The position numbers and the translations under genes were made by a program. Below are positions 5,592-54,127 of a stretch of 64,000 nucleotides of DNA, piece by piece. The stretch is from Candidatus Poribacteria bacterium (lineage in GTDB: Bacteria > Poribacteria > WGA-4E > WGA-3G): positions 1,152,001-1,216,000 of the forward strand of contig OZ219753.1 in assembly GCA_964291315.2 (NCBI GenBank), read 5' to 3'. Numbering within the stretch: the stretch's first letter is position 1; each line of letters opens with the position of its first letter. The notes under the pieces were generated by a model. The model ran no database searches, was not told the DNA's origin, and saw nothing but the letters and a program-made list of their open reading frames with translations.

Positions 5592-5611
5592 ATATAATTA
5601 GATAAAAAAAC

Positions 5612-5641
5612 TTGACATTGAGGTGCGTTTTAAGATATATT
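5612..5641 (+). promoter_or_regulatory. Sigma70-type promoter of lamin-tail cassette 1
   Basis: TTGACA-18 nt-TATATT; near-identical to 50580-50608. Confidence 0.75.
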
Positions 5642-5695
5642 TAATATATCGTAGAAAAGAGAGGGCGAAATAGTCCGAAAATGAATTTGTAATCT

Positions 5696-6205
5696 ATGCG
5701 ACATATGAAAGCTGTAGACACTTCCCCCAGAATCATGAAGTCAGCGAGGCTTAGCCACCTCTTGGATATTCAGGGCCCGTTATATCGCCTAAGCTTTGCT
5801 GTTGTTGTGGTTGTTAGCCCCCCCCCCGCTCCACACACAATAAGTACTTTATCCCCTCTATCACAAAATATCCTCTCGCTCCACCGCACTACCCGCTTTG
5901 CGCCTGCTTGCCAGCTGACCCAACAGCACGGGATCTCACACCGACTAAAGAGCCTCCCGCAGCGGAAGAGAGGCACGAGCCAACCCCATTCTATAGCAAA
6001 AGAAGCAGTAGTTCTATTCTTTTCATATGTTTTTGTTTTATTCTGTTGTTCTGTTTGCACACAGTTTAGGGAGTTTTGGCACTGCTATTTAACGCGCGAG
6101 AACAAGGAGGTTGAAATCAGGAGGTTTCCAGCAGAATCTCCGTTACGCCTTAACATCAATAGATCTGAGGGGGGTTCCCTCAGGATAAAGTTGACGTGTA
6201 AGTAA
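5696..6205 (+). other. Leader ORF (169 aa) in the conserved 5' leader, spanning a C10 tract
   Basis: Open frame homologous to the frameshifted leader ORF at 50670-51166. No clear SD, so translation is unproven. Confidence 0.5.
5818..5827 (+). repeat. Poly-C10 homopolymer tract
   Basis: Read directly; equivalent position to C9 at 50798-50806. Confidence 0.9.
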
Positions 6206-6288
6206 GCGAGAATGGGGCCGCTATCTCTGCGGTCATCTCTCATTATGTCTATATTTAACCAATATCAATAACAGAGGAGAATGAAGTA

Positions 6289-9123
6289 ATGTTATGGAAT
6301 AAAATCAGAATTTTCGTGGTCTTAGCACTCGTATCTATTTTTGCAACCACACACGCTTTTGGTATCCTTCGCACTTTAACTGTCTCGAACTATGAGAATT
6401 GGCCTAAACTCAAGAACGCCAAGAGCTTTTCGCTCATTATGAAAAATCTCAGTTTAATTGTGGGTGCTCCTTACGTCGGCGTTGTCGCTGACGTTCGTAT
6501 AAGTAACGAGGTACAAGGGCGGCAGATCGATGATTTGGTAGACCTGAAGGATTTACTGGTGCGCGGCGGCGCCATCACAATTTCAATGCGGGTGCCGCTA
6601 GCAGCCGAAATTACCAGCGATGGCGCTGCCAACCATACCCTAAAAGCCGACGCCTCAGATGCGGATCTGATGGCGATGAAGCACCGCATCGTCATCACCG
6701 AGGTGAATTGGGGGACGGATACCCCGCACAGAACCGGTGCGCAATGGTTTGAACTCTATAACGCTGGCGCCGCTTTGAAAACCAACGATTATATCAGATG
6801 GCGCACGCATCCCCGTTTAGACAAAGCCGCTGTCCCCGAACCGGGTAAGACGTTCATGTGGGACGATGACGGTAATGGGGAGCGCAAGTTTGTTGTTTTG
6901 GATCGTGTCGCCACGATCGATCGTTTTGGTAACCCGTGGGAGCTGAAAGGTGCGGATGGCGATACTGCCGATGGTGAGCCCGATGCTGATCCTTCTACCA
7001 CTGAGATTGATCTACCTACCGATAGGGATACCGGGGATCCTGACAATGCGATGGCCTCTATGTATCGGAAGATCGATCTAGATGCCACGGGTATGGCGTA
7101 TGCCTATGAAAATGGAAAACTGAAGGGCCTCGGAGAAGGCAACGAAGCCAGCTCCTGGGAGGCATCTAAATATAAGAGTAAGTATCTCATGAGAGGTAAT
7201 TACATAGCGAGTCCCGGGGCTGTTCACTCGCTTAATCCGGATGGACCGGGTGCAGTCCAGTTCACTATGACCCCCGCCTCTATCTCTCCTACCGGCATTA
7301 TCATTAACGAGGTGCGCAATGATCCCTCAAGTGCGAACTTGGATTGGATAGAGCTGCTCTATAACAGTGATGATCCCGAAGCCAAGCCCGTGAATATAGA
7401 GAACTATAAGCTGAGCCTGGTGATGGGGAAGATGAAGTCTGATGGGAGCTATCACGAGTCGGGCGATGCCAACTTCACGGAAACCAAACTCGCGGTGCTG
7501 CCGAAATACGAGATGACACCGGGCGAGTATGTCGTGATCTATAACCGGGAGCCTGGGAAGAGTGTTGGGTTTGCTGGCGGTGAAAAACTTCAGGATCTCT
7601 CTGCGAAAACGCACATCAAAAAGGGTGCCACGCACAAGTATGTGGTAGAGACAGACCTGAAGCTGCCCGCTGAAGGGAAGTTCTTGATCCTGCTGCGCAC
7701 GCGGAATAGTGCGGATGACGTTGGCAAGCCGTCAAATGTCAAAGATTATGCCGGCAACGGTTTCTTTAAGCGCATGGAAGATAAGAAGTTCGATACGAGT
7801 GTGTGGCCGTTTGTGGCGTGGTCTGCCCCGGGAGACGTTGAGGACTTCGGTAGCATGAACACCTTCGCCTCTACAAGTATGTCGTTTGGTCGGGGGGCTC
7901 AGTTGAGCGCGAAGGGCATGTATTGGGCGAAGTCTCGTGCCAACCGTGTTCACAAAGACGATTGGATGACCTTCGGTTTCATGGGTGCTGGCTACGATCG
8001 CGGGCGCGATAAAACGGTTGACACAGCGAGTGCCCCTGGCACGCCGGGGTATCCGAACATAGGGGTGAGTATGATCGCGGATGACAAAAACACCGCATCC
8101 ACTGACGATGACTACGCCTTCGATGGCAAAGTGAGCATCAGCGAGATTATGTATGATGCGGGGCCGCGCTCAAACTTGGCGCAGTGGATAGAACTCTACA
8201 ACAGCTCTATGACGGAGACGCTAGACCTTGCGGGCTGGGAGTTAGAGGTCCGCAATGAGCGGACAGTGACAGGTTCGTATGTCAATGCGAAGTTCACATT
8301 TGATGCGGACACGTATCTGCCGCCGAATCAGACGTTGCTGCTGGTGTCGAACAATGGTGCGAACGACGTTGCAGAGAACTACGTCTATAACTTGCAGGAG
8401 AATCACGGGAGTGCTCTGGGTTTGACAGTGCGGGGTCGGCAGCTGCTGAGTGCGGCGGGCTTCCATCTGGAGCTGCGTGCGAAGGTCAACAAAGCCGGTG
8501 ACTCGGCGTTGATGGTAGTAGACACAGCCGGCAACATTGAGATATCGGGGACGGTGCGCACCCACGCCTGGGATTTGCCCGAGCGCGGTGAGATGCGGAT
8601 GTCTATCACCCGCACGTATAAAGGCGGTTCGAATCCCGATAACGGGTTGATGCAAGCCTCTTGGCGGCAGGCAAACCTAGCAGGTGCCTCGCTGACGTAT
8701 TACGGACACCGCGACGATATCAGTTCCCCCGGCTACCGGGTCGGTGGTCCGCTACCCGTTTCGCTCTCAAGTTTCCGCCCGGTGCGCGATGCCTCGACGG
8801 GCCACGTTGAGATTAGCTGGGTAACGCAGTCCGAGCTCAACAACGCCGGGTTCAATATCCTACGCAGTGAGAGCAAGACGGGTGAGTTTGCGGTTATCAA
8901 CACCAAGGGGCTGATTGCGGGACACGGCACCACCTCCGAGAAGCACGTGTATACCTACACAGATACCGCTGCGAAACCCAACGCCGTCTATTACTACCAG
9001 ATAGAAGACGTCTCTATGGACGGGGTGCGCACAACGTTACGGACGACGCATCTGCGGGGCGATGTCTCTGCGAGGGGTAAACTCACGACGCGGTGGGGAG
9101 AGCTCAAATCGTCTGACAAATAG
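6289..9123 (+). CDS. Secreted lamin-tail-domain protein, paralog 1 (C-terminal PLPVSLSSF Ig-like domain + GKLTTRWGELK tail)
   Basis: Signal peptide MLWNK...AFG; three 'I(I/S/V)xE(V/I)...WxELY' LTD-type motifs with SPG/TPG ends; RBS AACAGAGGAG. Confidence 0.85.
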   Translation: MLWNKIRIFVVLALVSIFATTHAFGILRTLTVSNYENWPKLKNAKSFSLIMKNLSLIVGAPYVGVVADVRISNEVQGRQIDDLVDLKDLLVRGGAITISMRVPLAAEITSDGAANHTLKADASDADLMAMKHRIVITEVNWGTDTPHRTGAQWFELYNAGAALKTNDYIRWRTHPRLDKAAVPEPGKTFMWDDDGNGERKFVVLDRVATIDRFGNPWELKGADGDTADGEPDADPSTTEIDLPTDRDTGDPDNAMASMYRKIDLDATGMAYAYENGKLKGLGEGNEASSWEASKYKSKYLMRGNYIASPGAVHSLNPDGPGAVQFTMTPASISPTGIIINEVRNDPSSANLDWIELLYNSDDPEAKPVNIENYKLSLVMGKMKSDGSYHESGDANFTETKLAVLPKYEMTPGEYVVIYNREPGKSVGFAGGEKLQDLSAKTHIKKGATHKYVVETDLKLPAEGKFLILLRTRNSADDVGKPSNVKDYAGNGFFKRMEDKKFDTSVWPFVAWSAPGDVEDFGSMNTFASTSMSFGRGAQLSAKGMYWAKSRANRVHKDDWMTFGFMGAGYDRGRDKTVDTASAPGTPGYPNIGVSMIADDKNTASTDDDYAFDGKVSISEIMYDAGPRSNLAQWIELYNSSMTETLDLAGWELEVRNERTVTGSYVNAKFTFDADTYLPPNQTLLLVSNNGANDVAENYVYNLQENHGSALGLTVRGRQLLSAAGFHLELRAKVNKAGDSALMVVDTAGNIEISGTVRTHAWDLPERGEMRMSITRTYKGGSNPDNGLMQASWRQANLAGASLTYYGHRDDISSPGYRVGGPLPVSLSSFRPVRDASTGHVEISWVTQSELNNAGFNILRSESKTGEFAVINTKGLIAGHGTTSEKHVYTYTDTAAKPNAVYYYQIEDVSMDGVRTTLRTTHLRGDVSARGKLTTRWGELKSSDK

Positions 9124-9138
9124 CAGACACAACGTATA

Positions 9139-9184
9139 ACGCAAGCTCGATACATATTCATGCAAATATGTGTCAAGCTTGCGT
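9139..9184 (+). other. Intergenic stem-loop between paralogs 1 and 2
   Basis: ACGCAAGCT-C-GATACATATT ... AATATGTGTC-A-AGCTTGCGT; no U-tract. Confidence 0.7.
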
Positions 9185-9211
9185 CACCAATAACAGAGGA
9201 GAACAAACGTA

Positions 9212-11974
9212 ATGTTATGGAATAAAATGAAACTTTTGGTAGTATTAGGGCTTGTGTGTTTCTTCGCAACACCCCAGGCTTCCGCGCTTAACATTGTGAC
9301 GGGAGGTTCCCAAACCCACCTGCTTAAAGCCAAAACGTTCCTTATCTGGGCGAAAGCTACCGCGGATGCATCGGTCTCTGCTAATAACGGCATCACGGAC
9401 GCAGCAACAGGGAAGGTGTACGGCACAAGTACAAACAAGTATAACACACTTTGGGGTGACCTACGGAGTAGACTCGAAGGCGGTCATGGGCTTCTCCTTA
9501 CAGTGAAAGCGCCGTCACAGACTGATTTTGATAACGAGGACAAGGAGTATAGCTTGAAACCTAATCCGACAGCCGAGGAGGCGATGAAGCTCAAGCACCA
9601 TCTCGTTATCACCGAAATAATGTGGGGGACAGATGTGCCTTCAAGAGCATTTACCGCAGATAATCCGCAGTGGATAGAACTCTACAGCCAAGGCGCTATG
9701 AAAAAGGACGATGGCATCGGCCTGCACGATACTAGAGCATTTCCTGACCGTCTAGCGTATCGCGCAGGGGAGCTGTTTGAGCGTACTGAAAATGGTACCC
9801 TGAACAAGTATGTCGTTCTGGATCGTGTACACACGGTCGATCGCTTTGGCCGGCAGTGGCGTCTGAAAGGCAGCAACGGGGATACCGACGGCAACACAGA
9901 GAAGGGCATAGCTCCGACACCCATGGTCTCTATGTATCGGAAGATCGAACTGGATGCCACAGGCAAGGCGTATGCGTATGAAAACGGAAAACTGAAGGGA
10001 CTCGGAGAGGGCGATGACCCCGGGTCCTGGGAGGCTTCCGTCGGCTCGATTAACATCGAGGGTCAGTATATCGGCTCCCCCGGCAGCGTTCACGTGCCTG
10101 TGGGCGGTCCCTCTGTCGTCAAGTTTGATATGAAACCTGCGACTATCTCCCCTACCGGGATTATCATCAACGAGGTGCGAAACGACTCTTCAGATGAGAA
10201 CTTGGACTGGATAGAGTTGTTCTATAATAGCGATAGTGCCTCGGATGCCTCCGTGAATATAGAAAACTATCAGCTGAGCCTGGTGATGGGCAAGATGATG
10301 ACGGACGGCAGCGGCTATCACCAGTCCGGGGATGCCAACTTCACGGACACCAGCCTCGCGGTGCTGCCGAAATACAGGATGAAGCCGGGCGAGTATCTAG
10401 TGGTCTATAACCGAGACCCGGGGCGCGGTACTGCGTTCGCTGGGGGTACGAACCTTCAGAGTCTCTTGGACGACTCGGATGTCAACACGGGTGCCTCACA
10501 CAAGTATGTGGTTGCGGAATCCCTAAAACTTCCCGCTGAAGGCAAGTTCCTGATCCTGCTGCGCAACGCAAAAGAGAAGCTGAAAACGGCGGATAATGTC
10601 ATAGACTATGCGGGCAACGGGTTCTTCACACGGATAGAAGATAGGAAGTTCAATACAGATGTCTGGCCGTTCGTGGGATGGATGTCCCCGGGAGACGTTG
10701 AGGACTTCGGTAGCATGAATACCTTCGCCTCTACAAGTATGTCGTTCGGTCGGGGTGTGCAGATCAATTCGCAGGGCATGTACGGCGCGAAGTCTCGTGC
10801 GAACCGCGTCCACAAAGACGACTGGCAGTCGTTCGGGTTCATCGGCACTGGCTACGACCGCGGCAAAGACAAATCTCTTGACACAGCGACCTCCCCCGGC
10901 ACGCCGGGGTATCCGAACATGGCGGTGAACAACGTCTCCGAGGGCGACTACACGTTTGATGGCAAAGTGAGCATCAGCGAGATTATGTATGATGCGGGTC
11001 CCCGCTCGAACTTGGTGCAGTGGATAGAGCTCTACAACAGCTCTATGATGGATACGGTGAACCTTGAGGGGTGGGAGTTAGATATCCGCAACCAGGCAGG
11101 CAGCTTGTATGTCGACGCAACCCTCACCTTTAAGGCAGGGGCGTATATCCCGCCGAATCAGACGCTGCTGCTCGTCTCAAGCAGCGCTGCGAACGATGTT
11201 GCGGATAACTATGTCTACAACTTGTTGGAGAAGCACCGCAGCGATCTCAGGTTGACAACGTCTGGTCGGCAGCTGCTGAATGCGGAAGGTTTCTATTTGG
11301 AGCTGCGGGCGAAGGTCAGCGGTGGCGATCCGATGCTTATGGACGCAGCCGGCAACCTTGAGGTAGACGGCACTTCACGCACGAAGATGTGGGATTTCCC
11401 CGGAAGCGGTGAGCTGCGTACCTCTATTGTGCGGACCTATGGCGGTGTGTTCAACGACATGACAGAGGGTTCTGGACCGCACAATGCAGATAATGGCACG
11501 ATGGAAGCCTCTTGGCGACACTCGGATCTGGCAGGTGCCTCGCTCACCTTCTACGGGCAGCGGAGCGATATCGGCACGCCCGGCTACCGTCTCGGCGGAC
11601 CGCTACCCGTCTCACTCTCAAGTTTCCGCCCGGTGCGCAACGTCTCGACAGGACACGTTGAAATTACGTGGGTAACGCAGTCCGAGCTCAACAACGCCGG
11701 GTTCAATATCCTGCGCAGCGAGAGCAAGACCGGCGAGTTCAAGGCTATCAACGCCGAGGGTCTGATTGCGGGGCACGGCACGACCTCCGAGAAGCACGTG
11801 TATACCTACACAGATACGACTGCGAAGCCGAATGTGGTGTATTACTACCAGATAGAAGATGTCTCTATGGACGGGGTGCGTACGACGCTACGGACGACGC
11901 ATCTGCGGGGGGATGTCTCTGCGAGGGGTAAGCTCACAACCCGTTGGGGAGAGCTCAAATCGTCTGACAAATAG
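9212..11974 (+). CDS. Secreted lamin-tail-domain protein, paralog 2
   Basis: Same architecture as 6289-9123; C-terminal ~120 aa near-identical. Confidence 0.85.
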   Translation: MLWNKMKLLVVLGLVCFFATPQASALNIVTGGSQTHLLKAKTFLIWAKATADASVSANNGITDAATGKVYGTSTNKYNTLWGDLRSRLEGGHGLLLTVKAPSQTDFDNEDKEYSLKPNPTAEEAMKLKHHLVITEIMWGTDVPSRAFTADNPQWIELYSQGAMKKDDGIGLHDTRAFPDRLAYRAGELFERTENGTLNKYVVLDRVHTVDRFGRQWRLKGSNGDTDGNTEKGIAPTPMVSMYRKIELDATGKAYAYENGKLKGLGEGDDPGSWEASVGSINIEGQYIGSPGSVHVPVGGPSVVKFDMKPATISPTGIIINEVRNDSSDENLDWIELFYNSDSASDASVNIENYQLSLVMGKMMTDGSGYHQSGDANFTDTSLAVLPKYRMKPGEYLVVYNRDPGRGTAFAGGTNLQSLLDDSDVNTGASHKYVVAESLKLPAEGKFLILLRNAKEKLKTADNVIDYAGNGFFTRIEDRKFNTDVWPFVGWMSPGDVEDFGSMNTFASTSMSFGRGVQINSQGMYGAKSRANRVHKDDWQSFGFIGTGYDRGKDKSLDTATSPGTPGYPNMAVNNVSEGDYTFDGKVSISEIMYDAGPRSNLVQWIELYNSSMMDTVNLEGWELDIRNQAGSLYVDATLTFKAGAYIPPNQTLLLVSSSAANDVADNYVYNLLEKHRSDLRLTTSGRQLLNAEGFYLELRAKVSGGDPMLMDAAGNLEVDGTSRTKMWDFPGSGELRTSIVRTYGGVFNDMTEGSGPHNADNGTMEASWRHSDLAGASLTFYGQRSDIGTPGYRLGGPLPVSLSSFRPVRNVSTGHVEITWVTQSELNNAGFNILRSESKTGEFKAINAEGLIAGHGTTSEKHVYTYTDTTAKPNVVYYYQIEDVSMDGVRTTLRTTHLRGDVSARGKLTTRWGELKSSDK

Positions 11975-31552: not shown

Positions 31553-32599
31553 ATGCCAGTTGTATCTCACGATGTGTTAAGGGAATTTGTATATAATATT
31601 TATCGCGGTGCTGGTGGCACGGAGGAGGACGCTCGTATCGTCAGCGATCACGTTGTTGACTCTAATCTCGTTGGGCATGATTCACACGGTGTCATCAACG
31701 CCCCGAACTACATAGGCGGTATGGAGGGGGGGGCCGCCGCAGATAAGATGGAGGTTGTCAGGAATGGTGGTGCAGCAACCGTCATCAATGCCAATGGTGC
31801 GCTTGGGATGGTTGCTGCGCGTAAGGCGATGGAAATGGCTGTTGAAAGGGCGCGGTGTTGCACCATCGGCGCTGTCGGCTTACACCGGTGTGGGCATGCG
31901 GGGCGCATGGGCGAATACCCGCCCATTGCTGCGCGAGCGGGGATGATTGGTATTGTGTTACTCAACGGCGGTGGACGCTTTATGCACCCGCACGGTGGCA
32001 CCTCTCGAAGACTGCCCCCGAACCCGATTGCGATCTCCGTGCCGCGAAAAGAGGGTGCCCCGCTTCTCCTCGATATGACACTGAGTGTCGTTGCGGGCGG
32101 AAAACTGCTGGTTCACACTGCCCGCGGTGAGTCGATACCGGAAGGGTGGATGATAGATTCGGAGGGGAAGGCGCTCACTGATCCAAATGCGTTTCGCCAA
32201 CGTCCACAAGATACAGCCGTTATGCCGCTGGGTGGTTTCCAATTTGGGCACAAAGGGTTCGGGCTTGGTGTGATGATAGATGCGATCGCGGGCGGGCTTT
32301 CTTGGGCGGGGTGTAGTCGTGAAGCTCCGACGCGTGGGGCAAGTGGTATCGTAATGTTTGCGATCAAAATTGCGGATTTTATAGAGTTAGCCGATTATGA
32401 ACGCGAAATCGAACATCTCGTAAAGTGGGTGAAGTCATCTGCGCGGCTTCCAGGTGTCGACGAGATCTACGTTCCCGGAGAGTTTGAGGAACGGAGTCGC
32501 GAAAAACGTTTGCGGGAGGGTATCCCGATTGAAGAGCCGACTTGGGACCGCCTTGTTGAAGCTGCGAAACGTTTCCATGTCGCTGTCCCGAGTCTCTAA
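31553..32599 (+). CDS. Ldh_2 family (malate/L-lactate/ureidoglycolate dehydrogenase-like) oxidoreductase
   Basis: Motifs GHDSHG, H.GR.G.Y, NPIA, LDM, PLGG...HKGFGL and PGE.E. Confidence 0.9.
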   Translation: MPVVSHDVLREFVYNIYRGAGGTEEDARIVSDHVVDSNLVGHDSHGVINAPNYIGGMEGGAAADKMEVVRNGGAATVINANGALGMVAARKAMEMAVERARCCTIGAVGLHRCGHAGRMGEYPPIAARAGMIGIVLLNGGGRFMHPHGGTSRRLPPNPIAISVPRKEGAPLLLDMTLSVVAGGKLLVHTARGESIPEGWMIDSEGKALTDPNAFRQRPQDTAVMPLGGFQFGHKGFGLGVMIDAIAGGLSWAGCSREAPTRGASGIVMFAIKIADFIELADYEREIEHLVKWVKSSARLPGVDEIYVPGEFEERSREKRLREGIPIEEPTWDRLVEAAKRFHVAVPSL

Positions 32600-47403: not shown

Positions 47404-50400
47404 ATGACCCTTCAAGAAATAATTTTGGCGTTAGAAAAATTTTGGGCAGACCAAGGCTGCATCATCCAACATCCGTGTGATATAGAAGTAGGTGCAGGCA
47501 CATTTAACCCCGCGACCTTTTTACGGTGCCTCGGACCGGAGCCGTGGAAGGTTGCCTATGTAGAACCGGTCCGGCGTCCAACCGATGGTAGATACGGTGA
47601 AAACCCTTTTCGGGTTGGCGCGTACTATCAATATCAGGTCATTCTCAAGCCGGCCCCGGAGAACGTTCTTCCGCTCTACCTTGAAAGTCTTTATCATCTC
47701 GGTATCTCGCCCCGCAAGAACGATATCCGATTTGTGGAAGACGACTGGGAGTCCCCAACCCTGGGTGCGTCTGGATTGGGTTGGGAGGTTTGGTGGAACG
47801 GCGCGGAGGTCACGCAATTCACCTATTTTCAGCAGATGGGGAGTATTGACCTTGCGCCCGTCTGTGCTGAGATTACCTACGGGCTTGAACGCATCGCGCT
47901 CTACCTACAAGATGTGGATAACTTCTTCGACATCCGCTGGAACGAACACGTTAACTACGGGGATGTACATCGGCAGAGCGAAGTCGAATATTCAACTTAC
48001 AATTTTGAGCGTGCCGATGTAGAGATGCTTTTTGAGCTGTTCGGCACCTACGAGAAGGAGACGCACGCCTGCCTAGATGCTGGGTTAGTGCTACCGGCTA
48101 CTGATCACGTTCTGAAGTGTTCCCACACCTTCAACATGCTTGATGCCCGCGGTGTTATCAGCGTCACAGAGCGGGTCAGTTACATTGAACGTGTGCGGCG
48201 GCTCGCCCAACGGATTGCCCGGGCTTACGTCAAACAACGTGAAGAGATGGCACACCCGCTTGTGGGGCGTTTCGGCACGGGAACTCAACCTATCGGAGAT
48301 AGCGGCTTCGTTCCGGTAACCGACAGCGCCGTATCACCGTCTCAAGAGACTGCTGATTTTCTTTTTGAAATCGGCACGGAAGAGATACCTGCGAGCTATG
48401 TTCCGCCTGTGCTTGCGCAGCTTCGCGAGATCGCAACTGAGTCACTTACAGATCAGAGGATCCCGTTCGGTGCCATCGAGACGCTCGGTACTCCGCGTCG
48501 GGTTACGGTCAGTATCAAGCGCGTAAAGACGTTTCAAGAAAGTCGAGAGACAGAGGTGGTGGGACCGCCAAAGCGTGTGGCTTATGACGAGAGGGGCGAG
48601 CCGACAAAAGCTGCTATCGGCTTCGCGCGGACGCAAGGGGTTGAGCTCGCCGCCCTCCGCATCGTCGAAACCGAGCGGGGCGAATATGTTGCTGCCTCTA
48701 AACTTGAAACGGGCGAACCGACGCGGGCGGTTTTGAAAAAACTCCTGCCCGAATGGGTCCAAGCCCTTCGCTTTCCGAAAACGATGCGCTGGGAAACAGA
48801 GTCTGGGGATGCAGGCACTTTCGCTCGTTTCGCGCGCCCGATCCGATGGCTTGTGGCACTATTGGGCGCTGATGTCGTCAGCTGCACCTACGGTGCCGTG
48901 GAGGCGGGACGCGTCACCTATGGACATAGGTCCTTGCATCCTGAGCCGATAGCCCTGGCATCCGCGGACTTAGAGGTCTATGCTGAGAGGCTGCGCGCCG
49001 CAGGTGTGATTGTTTGTCAAAATGAGCGCCGTGAAACGATCAAAAAACAGGTTGCAACCCTTTTAAAAGCGGAAGGTTGTCTGCCTATACTCGACGACGA
49101 ATTGCTTGACACAGTAAATTATCTCGTAGAGAACCCGCAGCCCGTCGTTGGCAATTTTAGCGAGTCGCATCTGAAAATACCGTCTGAGGTGCTAATCACG
49201 GCTATGAAGAAGCATCAGCGTTATTTTCCGATGTGGATGTCGGAGACTGCTCTTGCTGCGAAATTTATTACGATTTCCAACGGTACAGATGGCAATATTG
49301 AGGGTGTTCGGCATGGAAACGAACGGGTGCTCCATGCTCGCCTCAACGATGCTGCGTTTTTCTATCGGGAGGATCAGAAAACCGGGCTTGCCGATAAGGT
49401 GGAACGTTTAGGTGCGGTCGTTTTCCATGCCAAACTGGGTTCGCTTTTAGAAAAGGTGGAACGACTTAAGACCCTTGTTTCATATATCGGCGGCCACCTG
49501 CGGCTTTCGGAAACGTCTGTGCATCATGCGGCGCGCGCGGCGTGGTTGTGTAAGGCAGACTTGACGACGCAAATGGTTATAGAATTTCCATCACTGCAGG
49601 GCATCACAGGGCGACATTACGCGCGCAACTCGGGCGAGGTGGCATCTGTTGCTGCGGCTATTGCGGAACACTACCAACCGCTTGGTGCGGATACGCCGCT
49701 GCCTGAAACTGAGATCGGTGCGATCGTTTCTATCGCTGATAAGATCGACACGATTGTCGGCTATTTCGGAATAGGAGAGCGTCCGACAGGTTCGCAAGAC
49801 CCGTACTCGTTACGGCGAAACGCCCTCGGCACAATTCGTATAGTTCAAGAGCTGCAGCTGTCACTCTCTTTAGGGGCGGTTGTCCAAAAGGCACACTCAC
49901 TTTACGGAGTCGCGTTGGCGGGCGATACGGAGACGAGCGTTCTTAACTTCATCAAAGAACGTCTACGCGTCATCTTGCTGCAAACGCAGCGGTTCGCTCC
50001 GGATCTTGCCGATGCTGTGTTAGCGGTGGGTGAGGTTGACGTTATTGATGTTTTCAGCCGCGCCACCGCGCTTGCCGAATTTCGCTTGACACCGAGTTTC
50101 GAGGCAGTCTATAATGCCTTGAATCGGGTGCTGCGAATTTTACCGCAGCGTCCCCCGGAGACGGTAGAGACTACGTTGCTCCGTGAAGTGGCTGAAAAGC
50201 GATTGTCTGACGTTATCACTGAATTAGAGCCGGGCTTTAAGCGGAGTCTTCGGGAAGGTGACTACGGTAAGCTCTTAGCGCAACTGGCTGCTTTACAGCC
50301 AACTATCGACAAATTCTTTGATGAAGTGCTGGTTATGGCGAAAGAACCAGCCCTGCGCGCCAACCGGTTGGCGCTGTTGAATCGAATTGGACAGAATGTT

Positions 50401-50445
50401 TATGCGGTTGCTGATCTCACAAAGCTCGTAATCGCTGGGAACTGA
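47404..50445 (+). CDS. glyQS: Glycine-tRNA ligase, fused alpha+beta subunits
   Basis: Alpha motifs [34 protein letters not shown]; beta motifs [28 protein letters not shown]; single 1013-aa frame. Confidence 0.95.
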
Positions 50446-50579
50446 TAAAATAGTCATCAGCTATGAACTATAAGGTGGTTACACCTTCACCAAAAGGCGT
50501 TCTCTCATGTGTGTATTATATGACTCTTCTGCAAAATAGGTGACTTTTTTCTTGTATATCAGAGAAACTGAAAAAAGAC

Positions 50580-50608
50580 TTGACATGAGGTGCGTTTTAA
50601 GATATACT
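50580..50608 (+). promoter_or_regulatory. Sigma70 promoter of lamin-tail cassette 2
   Basis: TTGACA-17 nt-TATACT; spacer nearly identical to 5612-5641. Confidence 0.8.
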
Positions 50609-50669
50609 TAATAAATAATATATTGTAGAAGATGCAGCATGAAATAGTCCGAAAGTGAATTTGTAATCT

Positions 50670-51166
50670 ATGCGACATATGAAAGCTTTAGACACAGGCT
50701 CCAGAATTAGCACGTCAGATCGGCTTAGCCCCCTCTTGGGTATTCAGTGCCTATTATATCGTCTAATCCGTGCATTTAGTTGGCTTTTTAGCGATTACCC
50801 CCCCCCTTACCTTTACACACAGTAAGTGTTTTATCCCCTTTATCACAAAACATACCGGCGCACCGCGGCTCTACCCACTTTGCGCCTGCTCGCCAGCTGA
50901 CCCAACAGCACAAGATCGCACACCGGCCACAGAGCGTCCGGCAGCCGAAGATAGGCAGGAGCAAAGCCGATCCTATAGCAAAAGAGACAGCCGCTCTATT
51001 CTTTTCATATGTTTTATGCTGGCGTTCCGTTTTCACGCCCTTTAGGGACACTTGGTGCCGCCATTCAAAATACGCAAGGACAAGGCGGACTGAAATTTGG
51101 AGGCTGCCCCCGTTCCCTCTTCCTATGGAGAGCTGGAGGGTTCTTCACATAAAGTTGATTTCGTAA
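50670..51166 (+). other. Leader ORF frameshifted at the C9 tract (51 aa as read; 165 aa if C10)
   Basis: ATG 50670 reads MRHMKALDT... to TAA 50823-50825. The frame starting at 50807 is stop-free to TAA 51164-51166 and aligns with 5696-6205. Confidence 0.55.
50798..50806 (+). repeat. Poly-C9 homopolymer tract
   Basis: Read directly; equivalent to C10 at 5818-5827. Confidence 0.9.
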
Positions 51167-51256
51167 GCAGAGCGAATGGATCTGTCATCCGTGATTCCAT
51201 TCTTATTTGATTTATGTTTAATATATGAATAACAGAGGAGGATGAGACTAATGTCA

Positions 51257-54127
51257 ATGTTATGGAATAAAATGAGACTATTTGTGGTGTTGGGCCTGGT
51301 GTGTTTCTTCTCAACATCCCAGGCTTCCGCTCTTCAGCAGGATAACGCATGGCAATCGAAGAAAGGTAGCTTTTATGTTTTCACAGCCGGAGCATTGAGC
51401 CCTGCGAGCGAAACACCCACACTCGCTGACAACGGCATCGTGGACACGGTAAAAGGGAGCCCGAAGGAAATTGTTTCTGAGACTTATTTTCCGGTGGAGT
51501 GGCAGGAAATGCAGGAGATATTCCGCGGAGGCGGCGGGTTTGCCGTTGCAGCGGCGATTCCGTCTCCAGGCGACACGGGCCAGTTCACGTTTGCTAAGCA
51601 TAAAAGTTGGGCTGCTACAAAGGCGGGTGCGGACGCGTTAGAGCCTACCGAAGAGGCAAAAGCCTTGGCGCAGACGCTCAAGCAGGCAATTGTTTTCAGC
51701 GAGGTCATGTGGGGTCGGGATTTCGCTGCGAGAACTGATGGTCCCGGCGAGTTTGGGGCCCAATGGGTTGAATTTTACGTCAATAAACCTTTGAAAAGCA
51801 ACGATGTGGTGGTATTCAGATCATATAGTAATGCGACCGAGATGCCTGCTCCGGGTGATATAGTATCAGTAACTCAGGGCGGTGGTTCTAATTTTTATCG
51901 CCATCATTATGTCTTTTTGGATCGTATATCAACGATCGATCGTTGGGGTAGGAATTGGTTCCCGGATGCGCCGGGTAAAGACGGTGATACCGATGGCAAC
52001 ACAAATGCCGGCCTGCCTCCGACGCCTGTGGTCTCTATGTATCGGGATATCAAACTTGATAGCACAGGGAAGGCGTATGCGGTCAAAGATGGTAACCTGG
52101 ATGGACTCGGTGATGGCAGCGAACCCAGCTCCTGGAAGGAGTCCGTCGGCCGCGTGAACATGGCGGGGCATTTCATCGGTTCCCCGGGCAGCGTTCACGT
52201 GCTTCATCCTGGCGGTCCCCATGTAACAAGGTTTGATAAGGCGCCTAAGGATGAAGATATCACGGCTACCGGCATCATCATCAATGAGGTGTACAACGAC
52301 CCGTCAAGTGCGAACTTGGATTGGGTAGAGTTGTTCTATAATACCGATGATGCGGCAGCTGCATCTATAAGCATAGAGAACTATAAGTTGAGCTTGGTGA
52401 TGGGGAAGATGAAGACTGATGGCAGCGGCTACCACGAGTCTGGGGATGCCAACTTCACGGAGACGAGCCTTGCGGTGCTGCCGAAATACAAGATGCGGCC
52501 GGGGGAGTATCTGGTGGTCTATAATCGGGAGCCTGGGAAGAGCGTTAAGCTCGCTGGGGGTGTGAACGTTAGCAACCTGTTGGACAGAACGGACATCAAT
52601 ATGGGTGCGACGCACAAGTATGCGGTTGCGAAGGATCTGAGTCTGCCTGCTACGGGCAAGTTCTTGATCCTGTTGCGCACGCGGAATAGTGCGGATGACG
52701 TTGGCAAGCCGACGAACATCAAAGACTACGCTGGCAACGGGTTCTTCAAGCGCATGGAAGATGGAAAGTTCAACACGTACCTCTGGCCGTTCGTGGGCTG
52801 GTCGAAGCCGGGAGATGTGGATGAGAGCGACTTCGGTGGTATGAACAGCTTCTCTTCTCGGAGCATGTCGTTCGGTCGGGGTGTGCACTTAAACGCGAAG
52901 GGGATGTATTGGGCGAAGTCTCGTGCGAATCGTGTCCACAAAGACGACTGGCAGTCGTTTGGTTTCATGGGTGCTGGCTACGATCGCGGCAAAGATAAAA
53001 CGATTGACAAGGCGAGTTCCCCTGGCACGCCGGGGTATCCGAACATGGTAGTGGGCGTGATCGCTGATGACAAAGACACCGCATCGACTGAAGACGACTA
53101 TGCGTTTGATGGAACAGTGACGATCAGCGAGATTATGTATGATGCGGGACCGCGCTGGGACTTGGTGCAGTGGATAGAGCTCTACAATAGTTCTATGACG
53201 GAGACGCTAAACCTTGAAGGGTGGGAGTTTGAGATCCGCAACGCCGACACAAACGTAGATGCGTATGTGGATGCGTCTTTCACGTTTGCTGCGGGGACGT
53301 ATCTGCCGCCGAATCAGACGTTGCTGCTGGTGTCGAAGAACGGTGTGAACGATGTGCCGGAGAACTACGTATACAATCTGCAACAGAAGCATCGTAGCGA
53401 TTTAGGGTTGGCGGCGAACGGTCGCCGGTTGCTGAGTGCGGAGGGTTTCCGTCTGGAGCTGCGTGCAAAGGTCAACATAGGTGGTCAGTCCCGGTTGCGG
53501 GTGATGGACACGGCTGGCAACGTTGAGATAGTGGAGGGTCTGCGCAAGCGTGCGTGGGAGCTGCCGAAGCGTGGGGATGTGCGGATGTCTATTGTGCGCA
53601 AGTCTGGAGGCATCTTCAATAACATGACAGAGGGTTCTGGTCCGCATGCTGCGGATGACGGTCTGATGAAAACCTCTTGGCGGAAGGGTTCCTCGCTGAC
53701 GTACTACGGACATCGTGACGATATCGGCACGCCGGGTCATCGTGCTGGGGGACCGCTGCCCGTGTCGCTCTCGAGTTTCCGTCCTGTGCGCGATGTCTCG
53801 ACGGGCCACGTTGAGATTACGTGGGTAACGCAGTCGGAGCTGAACAATGCGGGGTTCAATATCCTACGCAGTGAGAGCAAGACCGGTGAGTTTGCGGTTA
53901 TCAACGCCGAGGGTCTGATTGCTGGCCACGGCACGACGTCTGAGAGGCATGTGTATCGCTACACAGATACGACTGCGAAGCCGAGTGTGGTGTATTATTA
54001 CCAGATAGAAGATGTTTCTATGGATGGGGTGCGCACGACGTTACGGACGACGCATCTGCGTGGGGATGTCTCTGCGAATGGTAAACTCACAACGCGTTGG
54101 GGAGAGCTGAAATCGTCTGATAAATAA
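51257..54127 (+). CDS. Secreted lamin-tail-domain protein, paralog 3
   Basis: MLWNK signal peptide, same domain series and GKLTTRWGELKSSDK end; alternative starts at 51242/51251. Confidence 0.85.
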   Translation: MLWNKMRLFVVLGLVCFFSTSQASALQQDNAWQSKKGSFYVFTAGALSPASETPTLADNGIVDTVKGSPKEIVSETYFPVEWQEMQEIFRGGGGFAVAAAIPSPGDTGQFTFAKHKSWAATKAGADALEPTEEAKALAQTLKQAIVFSEVMWGRDFAARTDGPGEFGAQWVEFYVNKPLKSNDVVVFRSYSNATEMPAPGDIVSVTQGGGSNFYRHHYVFLDRISTIDRWGRNWFPDAPGKDGDTDGNTNAGLPPTPVVSMYRDIKLDSTGKAYAVKDGNLDGLGDGSEPSSWKESVGRVNMAGHFIGSPGSVHVLHPGGPHVTRFDKAPKDEDITATGIIINEVYNDPSSANLDWVELFYNTDDAAAASISIENYKLSLVMGKMKTDGSGYHESGDANFTETSLAVLPKYKMRPGEYLVVYNREPGKSVKLAGGVNVSNLLDRTDINMGATHKYAVAKDLSLPATGKFLILLRTRNSADDVGKPTNIKDYAGNGFFKRMEDGKFNTYLWPFVGWSKPGDVDESDFGGMNSFSSRSMSFGRGVHLNAKGMYWAKSRANRVHKDDWQSFGFMGAGYDRGKDKTIDKASSPGTPGYPNMVVGVIADDKDTASTEDDYAFDGTVTISEIMYDAGPRWDLVQWIELYNSSMTETLNLEGWEFEIRNADTNVDAYVDASFTFAAGTYLPPNQTLLLVSKNGVNDVPENYVYNLQQKHRSDLGLAANGRRLLSAEGFRLELRAKVNIGGQSRLRVMDTAGNVEIVEGLRKRAWELPKRGDVRMSIVRKSGGIFNNMTEGSGPHAADDGLMKTSWRKGSSLTYYGHRDDIGTPGHRAGGPLPVSLSSFRPVRDVSTGHVEITWVTQSELNNAGFNILRSESKTGEFAVINAEGLIAGHGTTSERHVYRYTDTTAKPSVVYYYQIEDVSMDGVRTTLRTTHLRGDVSANGKLTTRWGELKSSDK

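Follow-up and report, generated by a model that had tools for sequence, protein, structure and literature searches.

A C tract within an upstream leader open reading frame as a candidate length switch for secreted LTD proteins in a Candidatus Poribacteria genome

The leader of LTD paralog 3

We analysed a 64,000-nt stretch of a Candidatus Poribacteria genome (GenBank assembly GCA_964291315.2, contig OZ219753.1, positions 1,152,001 to 1,216,000 of the forward strand), hereafter called the window. Our subject is the leader preceding a gene for a secreted Lamin Tail Domain (LTD) protein, in which a short open reading frame (ORF) runs into a homopolymer of nine C residues. The genome is a metagenome-assembled genome (MAG) of 4.4 Mb in 4 contigs. 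The leader under study is named copy E, and a second leader in the window is named copy 1, or copy A. The features of the copy E locus (50446-54127) are as follows, in window coordinates.

50446-51241: intergenic gap of 796 nt between the glycyl-tRNA synthetase ORF and LTD paralog 3
50580-50608, plus strand: leader promoter of sigma-70 type (TTGACA, 17 nt, TATACT), with 11 of 12 consensus matches
50670-50825, plus strand: leader ORF in its short state, 51 codons, stop TAA at 50823-50825
50770-51045, plus strand: second long open frame across the tract, which would be used at tract length n+2; stop at 51043-51045
50793-50806, plus strand: GATTA flank (50793-50797) and C9 tract (50798-50806), candidate slipped-strand site
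50807-50826, plus strand: conserved post-tract box (ACTTYACAnAnAGTAAG type), recognised in alignments and holding the short-state stop
50807-51166, plus strand: long open frame of 119 codons, which would be used if the tract gained one C; stop at 51164-51166
50936-50952, plus strand: small mid-leader hairpin, CGG..CCG here and CCG..CGG at 5955-5971 in copy 1
51174-51222, plus strand: imperfect hairpin (51174-51202) with a U-rich stretch behind it (51203-51222), which may act as an attenuator or masking element
51235-51241, plus strand: Shine-Dalgarno sequence GAGGAGG before LTD paralog 3
51242-54127, plus strand: ORF of LTD paralog 3, secreted, 961 aa, with likelier starts at 51251 or 51257 (Pfam LTD, E = 1.9e-20)

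An earlier note on this DNA had described an ATG at 50670 that opens a 51-aa ORF ending at 50825, a C9 tract at 50798-50806, and a stop-free frame of 119 codons running from 50807 to 51166. All of these are correct. Its frame arithmetic also holds: a C10 tract would fuse the two frames into 46 + 119 = 165 codons, with the stop 357 nt past the tract. The start that is conserved across the family is the second ATG of the frame, at 50679 in copy E.

The tract sits 435 nt before LTD paralog 3, in a separate upstream ORF. At nine residues it is long enough to slip (about 7-8 or more), and it is placed where its length alters the reading frame, as in slipped-strand contingency loci. For tract lengths n, n+1 and n+2, the distance from tract to stop is 16, 357 and 236 nt in copy E, and 375, 239 and 13 nt in copy A. 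Among 3000 dinucleotide shuffles, only 0.03% (copy E) and 0.07% (copy A) matched or exceeded the lengths of the two longest post-tract frames. The long frame of copy E ends 8 nt before the hairpin-forming stretch.

Upstream of the gap, the alpha and beta subunits of glycyl-tRNA synthetase are encoded by a single fused ORF of 1013 aa (47404-50445). No terminator-like site was found between the stop of this fused glyQS ORF and the leader promoter.

Comparison with copy 1

The other leader in the window comprises the following features.

5612-6205, plus strand: leader copy 1 (A), within an aligned region of 5600-6290; promoter at 5612-5641
5696-6205, plus strand: copy 1 leader ORF in its long state, uninterrupted, 169 aa, with a C10 tract at 5818-5827
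6289-11974, plus strand: LTD paralogs 1 (6289-9123) and 2 (9212-11974), downstream of copy 1

Leaders A and E can be aligned over ~700 nt, and their long frames finish at the same aligned position, as proposed earlier. To describe copy E as one C short (C9 compared with C10) is a simplification, as copy E is net 8 nt longer around the tract. Copy 1 has no GATTA flank, and its spacing from the conserved ATG to the tract is 113 nt, compared with 119 nt in copy E.

LTD paralogs are often arranged in tandem, and within such pairs the long leader was found only on the first gene. The second gene has only a conserved ribosome-binding region upstream, as in the gap at 9124-9211.

A leader family at 24 loci

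Leader copies were located by profile searches of the genome contigs. There are six full LTD-type leaders (A-F) and one that is internally deleted (G), and a shared 5' core is present at 24 loci. The core has a constant order. A promoter (TTGACA-17/18-TATAnT) is followed by a purine-rich stretch, the conserved ATG and ~40 codons, and then by a small hairpin-like T-rich stretch, (GAT)TA, the C run and a box of the type ACTTCACAnAnAGTAAG with its TAA. In the alignments, the promoter is kept in the leader copies whose sequence extends to the -35 box. The genes behind the core are LTD paralogs (~920-960 aa), members of a second secreted family (~600-1200 aa) and a few others.

A pure C run is kept in 21 of the 24 copies and broken in copies N, R and X. 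The run is C10 in A and L, C9 in nine copies (C, D, E, F, I, K, M, O and V), C8 in another nine (B, H, J, P, Q, S, T, U and Y) and C6 in W. On average, the copies diverge at ~42-45% of the aligned positions between ATG and tract, and the pure run is retained nonetheless. This replaces the picture of two leader copies drawn before. C10 cannot serve as the reference length with only two of the 21 tract-bearing copies carrying it, and the short state of copy E is not odd but the commonest state of all: the stop lies 17 nt or less past the tract in nine of 21 copies (E, F, I, J, L, Q, S, U and Y).

The six LTD leaders split evenly over the three exit frames, with A and D in the long frame, B and C in the middle frame, and E and F in the short frame. 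Copy D reached the long frame through two single-base deletions and not through the tract; its ORF has 188 aa. The long frame of many family members extends to the ribosome-binding site of the main gene, and in copies H, V, W and T it is the current frame that stops 0-16 nt before the main start codon. In copies Q, S and U, one additional C would carry the leader frame into the main ORF in frame. A role of tract length in deciding between an immediate stop and a long read-through is thus supported by comparison of the copies, and the idea of a switch is partly supported as a family-level inference.

Copy G (G000:C1:544513-545091) keeps the promoter, the start and the distal leader. Lost through its deletion are the last part of the leader ORF and, with it, the C run and post-tract box, which makes this copy a natural tract-less variant before a 960-aa paralog.

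We also considered the flanked tract as a recombination site, and rejected this: the copies align as homologues both before and after the tract, and the sole mosaic leader, copy H, breaks ~60 nt past the tract and not at it. A scan of a genome contig collection for a pattern of start box plus tract gave no hits. A search with the leader DNA against 100 other genomes of the family returned only three matches of 40-55 nt with E ~1e-4, which we took as noise.

One open frame before the tract

Summed over 20 copies, the segment between the conserved ATG and the tract contains 1, 59 and 49 stops in frames 0, 1 and 2, respectively. Frame 0 is open in 19 of the 20 copies, while frames 1 and 2 are open in none. 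In 2000 column shuffles the mean number of open copies was 2.9 and the maximum was 14. The comparison supports selection for an open frame leading into the tract.

The substitution pattern is not that of a conserved protein. In the six close copies, substitutions at codon positions 1, 2 and 3 were 0.185, 0.165 and 0.142 before the tract and 0.205, 0.166 and 0.172 after it. For 18 more diverged copies, a set from which G, N and I were left out, the values were 0.449, 0.418 and 0.416. By contrast, the LTD genes of the same loci, used as the control, gave 0.202, 0.153 and 0.325. A Pfam search of the 169-aa product found no family. Given the flat substitution profile relative to the LTD controls and the lack of a Pfam family, the 165-169 aa product is not a conserved protein. 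The earlier suggestion of a conserved leader ORF holds for the frame from ATG to tract, open in 19 of 20 copies, but not for the long product. Since one frame is kept open without a codon pattern in the substitutions, what is kept appears to be translation of the leader frame and not a particular peptide. On the simplest reading, an upstream ORF is translated here, and it would be its translation that matters and not the peptide.

Searches for a structured RNA were negative. The only Rfam hits were a tRNA at another place in the window and one chance match with E = 1.6, and RNAalifold predicted 0 pairs on the 24-copy core.

The LTD paralogs themselves change fast at codon positions 1 and 2 (0.20 and 0.15, compared with 0.33 at position 3), which fits diversifying surface proteins. 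Separately, the leader ORFs at L057-L076 (OZ241845.1) and at two sites of this genome (C4:1500959 and C2:77313) start alike (M-x-N-R-V-V-N-F/V...); given this shared starting peptide, some leader ORFs may be conserved beyond mere openness.

The same layout in other Poribacteria

Close relatives of the LTD protein were found almost exclusively in 'Candidatus Poribacteria' MAGs (79 loci). A run of at least seven C on the coding strand lies within 900 nt upstream in 24 of the 79 LTD loci, and a run of at least seven G in one of the 79. We inspected 23 loci, one of which had no upstream sequence, leaving 22. In every one of these 22, an ATG ORF of ~35-55 codons enters the tract. The tracts range from C8 to C22: two genomes have C8-C9, and a third has C10-C22. 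The ORF from the upstream ATG stops 14-16 nt past the tract in 11 of the 22 loci, at +5 in one, and at +98 to +424 in 10. The pattern of one short and two long exit frames had P<=0.007 in 12 of the 22 loci, and the distance from the end of the long frame to the main start is only 10-22 nt at several loci.

These ORFs have no recognisable sequence similarity to the leader ORFs of our genome. The core profile gave only four weak partial matches among the 79 loci of other Poribacteria, and thus the common feature is the layout and not the sequence. Two pairs of paralogs, with flanks near-identical by eye, differ in tract length (C21 in L057 and C12 in L064; C12 in L067 and C10 in L070), which suggests that the tracts change faster than their flanks.

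Flanked C and G runs across the genome

Counts of C/G runs of length 6, 7, 8, 9 and 10 in the genome are 510, 47, 45, 18 and 2, so that long runs are in excess. The surroundings of the 65 runs with n of at least 8 are alike: A stands at position -1 in 58, T at -2 in 53, GATTA precedes 36 and GCT follows 34. The resulting consensus is TTA-Cn-GCT, often CTTATCAnAGATTA-Cn-GCTT, and it is found whichever strand carries the gene. ATTA-C8 occurs 40 times in this genome and 0-13 times in each of 111 others of the family, and the reversed control pattern occurs 0-3 times per genome. A G8 run at 31726-31733 in the window stands apart, lying in frame inside a 348-aa ORF (31553-32599) without the usual flanks.

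The leader family accounts for 20 of the 65 runs, and at least nine others lie in similar promoter-ORF-tract leaders before other genes. A further 28 are inside methyltransferase genes of restriction-modification systems, which belong to four multi-copy families by Pfam (Eco57I/MmeI-type, Type III mod and N6_N4_Mtase among them) and comprise 7 Type III mod paralogs and 21 others. These 28 genes are otherwise intact, each being split exactly at the G/C run. Four examples are listed below.

L118, G000:C4:275129-278369: split methyltransferase gene
L119, C1:317891-319871: split methyltransferase gene
L120, C3:59342-62621: split methyltransferase gene
L121, C4:460147-463108: split methyltransferase gene

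At the Type III mod site, the gene is tract-free and its ORF unbroken in most species of the genus. Five genomes, this one included, carry G7, G8, G8, G9 and G11 there. The G7 copy has 126 open codons upstream of the DPPY motif, compared with 51-76 in the other tract copies and ~212-240 in tract-free ones. Contingency loci classically carry surface proteins and methyltransferases, and the genome-wide context of the copy E tract is typical of such loci.

A proposed three-state switch

With moderate confidence, we read the C9 tract as a hypermutable homopolymer in a translated leader mini-gene, which would act as a three-state slipped-strand phase-variation device for the secreted LTD protein. 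Transcription would begin at the strong promoter at 50580-50608, and ribosomes would initiate at the ATG at 50670 or 50679 and translate ~40 codons into the tract. At C9 they would stop at the conserved TAA 16 nt past the tract. With one additional C they would read through 119 codons, to 8 nt before the hairpin and U-rich stretch and ~75-90 nt before the main start, and with two additional C they would read through 79 codons. Only a ribosome carried along the leader would then permit expression of the main gene, by shielding the C-rich, G-poor stretch from Rho, by remodelling the hairpin near the ribosome-binding site, or both. Copy E would be low or OFF and copy 1 ON. The sequences directly show the architecture, the constraint on the open frame and the diversity of tract lengths across paralogs and species, and from these we infer leader translation, slippage at this locus, the coupling and its polarity.

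Several observations fit such a coupling. In 80-nt segments around and after the tract, the six copies have a C content of 0.31-0.44 and a G content of 0.10-0.17, and they remain C-rich and G-poor to ~100 nt beyond the tract. The genome encodes Rho (a 444-aa ORF with Rho_RNA_bind). Of the 91 base pairs predicted in the distal leader of the six close copies, 12 are compensatory, with both partners changed. In the mid-leader CCG/CGG hairpin, for instance, pair 143/149 is CG in three copies, GC in the other three and broken in none. Because of these compensatory pairs, an RNA component of the switch is likely.

A number of points weigh against the proposed switch. A scan of 50446-51300 for intrinsic terminators found 0 terminator-like sites. 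The hairpin near the long-frame stop does not fold better than shuffled sequences (z = -0.83 and -0.21), RNAalifold gave no consensus structure for the 3' module, and the pair count in a 14-sequence alignment was 60.9% compared with 59.4% in shuffles. The 3' arm of the hairpin can instead pair with the Shine-Dalgarno sequence; if it masked the ribosome-binding site when the long frame is read, ON and OFF would be inverted. Between the two polarities, we slightly favour the one in which the long frame is ON and copy E is low or OFF. The copy E leader ORF has no recognisable Shine-Dalgarno sequence, while copies Q, S, U, W and X have one. MutS and MutL are both present, so slippage need not be very frequent. 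Simple slippage also does not explain why the TTA and GCT flanks are kept in both gene orientations. Furthermore, none of the 28 methyltransferase genes is in frame: they would need n = 7, 10 or 13, but in the assembly n is 8 in 21 genes and 9 in 7. This may reflect a population that is mostly OFF, programmed slippage, or true C10 tracts that were under-called; in the last case the difference between C9 and C10 at our locus would fall within error. Finally, the Logan contigs (X1-X4) are short unitigs that end at the repeat, and none listed spans 50798-50806.

A broader proposal is possible, if doubtful. The genome might hold a genome-wide contingency system built on one TTA-Cn-GCT cassette, with three-state leader switches before dozens of surface paralogs and 28 methyltransferase genes that the population consensus keeps out of frame. 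Flanks conserved in both gene orientations would then suggest that slippage is programmed or aided by a dedicated factor, or some other directed process, and is not passive slippage during replication.

Alternative explanations

The difference between C9 and C10 could be a homopolymer miscall. Both leaders might then have the same true tract length, with no phase difference between them, and the leader ORF could nonetheless be genuine. Errors that persist in long-read assemblies classically fall in long homopolymers, this genome is a 4-contig MAG, and the split methyltransferase genes would all come into frame at n = 10. The Logan contigs, which do not resolve the tract of copy E, do match the assembly at two sister leaders, copy H (C8, runs X1 and X2) and copy D (C9, run X2; loose ends at 50805 and 50810), although runs X1 and X2 are possibly source data of the assembly. 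The assembly does call C10 twice, another MAG shows C10 to C22, and at the homologous mod site other genomes show G7, G8, G9 and G11, with the G7 copy open the furthest. We consider a miscall rather unlikely on balance. Two pattern scans of metagenome contigs for the leader tract gave no hits. Alternatively, the poly-C could have a role that does not depend on its length, as a Rho loading site, a target of a protein or small RNA (sRNA), or a poly-proline pause (the run encodes PPP in every frame), with a conventional regulatory upstream ORF as the leader and neutral tract lengths. A pure C run is kept although any CCN codon gives proline, the surroundings are C-rich and G-poor with Rho present, and the flanks persist in both orientations. 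Homopolymeric G repeats in 5' untranslated regions (UTRs) can also be sRNA targets, according to the available part of one source (PMC12721329). Yet the same flanked tract lies inside the coding regions of 28 methyltransferase genes on either strand, where a role in RNA is unlikely, and the arrangement of one short and two long frames recurs in independent lineages, which would be needless if the frame were irrelevant. We judge such a role unlikely.

Two further accounts deny the leader frame its part in a length switch. A structured non-coding RNA leader of ~650 nt, of the riboswitch or antiterminator type, would make the frames by-products. Nucleotide conservation without a codon pattern would fit it, and so would the compensatory pairs of the distal leader, including the CCG/CGG hairpin. 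However, no Rfam family matched, neither the core nor the 3' module yielded an RNAalifold consensus, the fold energies were no better than those of shuffles, and the avoidance of stops in one frame only would be left unexplained. A purely structured non-coding leader was dropped on the absence of RNAalifold pairs and the one-frame stop avoidance, and we consider the account as a whole improbable. It is more improbable still that the frame of 165-169 aa is a real protein gene that was frameshifted in copy E, whether pseudogenised or phase-variable. The intact ORFs of 169 aa in copy 1 and 188 aa in copy D might suggest this, but the frame shows no third-position excess, unlike the control genes, and no Pfam family, and only two of the six close copies use it. 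Moreover, it is not kept in the other leader subfamilies, where the main gene begins 45-280 nt past the tract, and the leader DNA was not found in the 100 other genomes of the family that were searched.

Significance and relation to known systems

To our knowledge, phase variation is known almost only from animal pathogens and commensals. If the proposed switch is real, the switch set of this uncultured and mutualistic sponge symbiont would be very large, with secreted LTD proteins switched via upstream mini-genes and DNA methyltransferases directly. This would provide a testable route to cell-to-cell heterogeneity of the surface and the epigenome within the sponge. There are practical consequences as well: annotation pipelines would label the methyltransferase genes as pseudogenes and overlook the leader ORFs, and the homopolymer accuracy of long-read MAGs determines how ON and OFF are read. 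In the literature on Poribacteria we found nothing on phase variation, on such homopolymers or on LTD proteins, and a literature search on sponge symbionts and phase variation likewise returned nothing. The present analysis adds the open-frame statistics, the three-frame layout, the flanked cassette and the 28 split methyltransferase genes.

Poly-G tracts turn genes ON and OFF in Campylobacter, as described in the available part of a preprint (bioRxiv 10.1101/2022.11.09.515450). The likeness to the contingency loci of Campylobacter, Neisseria and Haemophilus lies in C/G runs of at least 8 at surface-protein and restriction-modification genes, in close copies that differ in length, and in a frame that decides expression, as it would in our genome. 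Unlike the tracts of those genera, however, the one studied here lies in a separate upstream ORF and not in the structural gene or a promoter spacer. We also know of no conserved TTA-Cn-GCT flanks at the tracts of Campylobacter, Neisseria or Haemophilus. Phase-variable Type III mod genes, or phasevarions, occur in Haemophilus, Neisseria and Helicobacter. The Type III mod genes here are similarly broken at a G/C run, a likeness that concerns the genome context and not the copy E locus, but all 28 methyltransferase genes are out of frame in the consensus.

The stretch after the short-state stop, C-rich and G-poor in a genome that encodes Rho, also resembles the Rho-dependent polarity of the tnaC/mgtL kind. 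Repeats in the 5' UTR that act via RNA include the H. influenzae hmw element and sRNA-targeted G repeats, as far as the available part of the source goes (PMC12721329). There, as here, the repeat lies downstream of the promoter in the long leader of an adhesin-type gene. Those systems act by RNA structure, processing or sRNA pairing, whereas the conserved feature here is an ORF that runs through the tract.

A homopolymer inside a leader ORF was not found in the literature, and the nearest case is the repeat-based pil1 system of Streptococcus gallolyticus. According to the available part of its description (Danne et al. 2014, PMC3894217), GCAGA repeats alter the length of a leader peptide, and with a longer peptide the ribosomes destabilise a premature terminator. 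This is the closest precedent, in that a repeat within an upstream leader ORF alters its length, there with stochastic expression of a surface-structure operon. In copy E, too, the repeat lies inside the leader ORF and alters its length, and the open-frame constraint suggests that this ORF is translated. The differences are that the repeat here is a homopolymer (C6-C22) and not a series of GCAGA units, in an uncultured Poribacteria symbiont and not a Gram-positive coccus, and that the device has three exit frames, of which two are long, recurs in dozens of paralogous leaders per genome and shows no clear intrinsic terminator. If the proposed switch is real, the leader-peptide logic of S. gallolyticus would extend to homopolymers and to a distant phylum.

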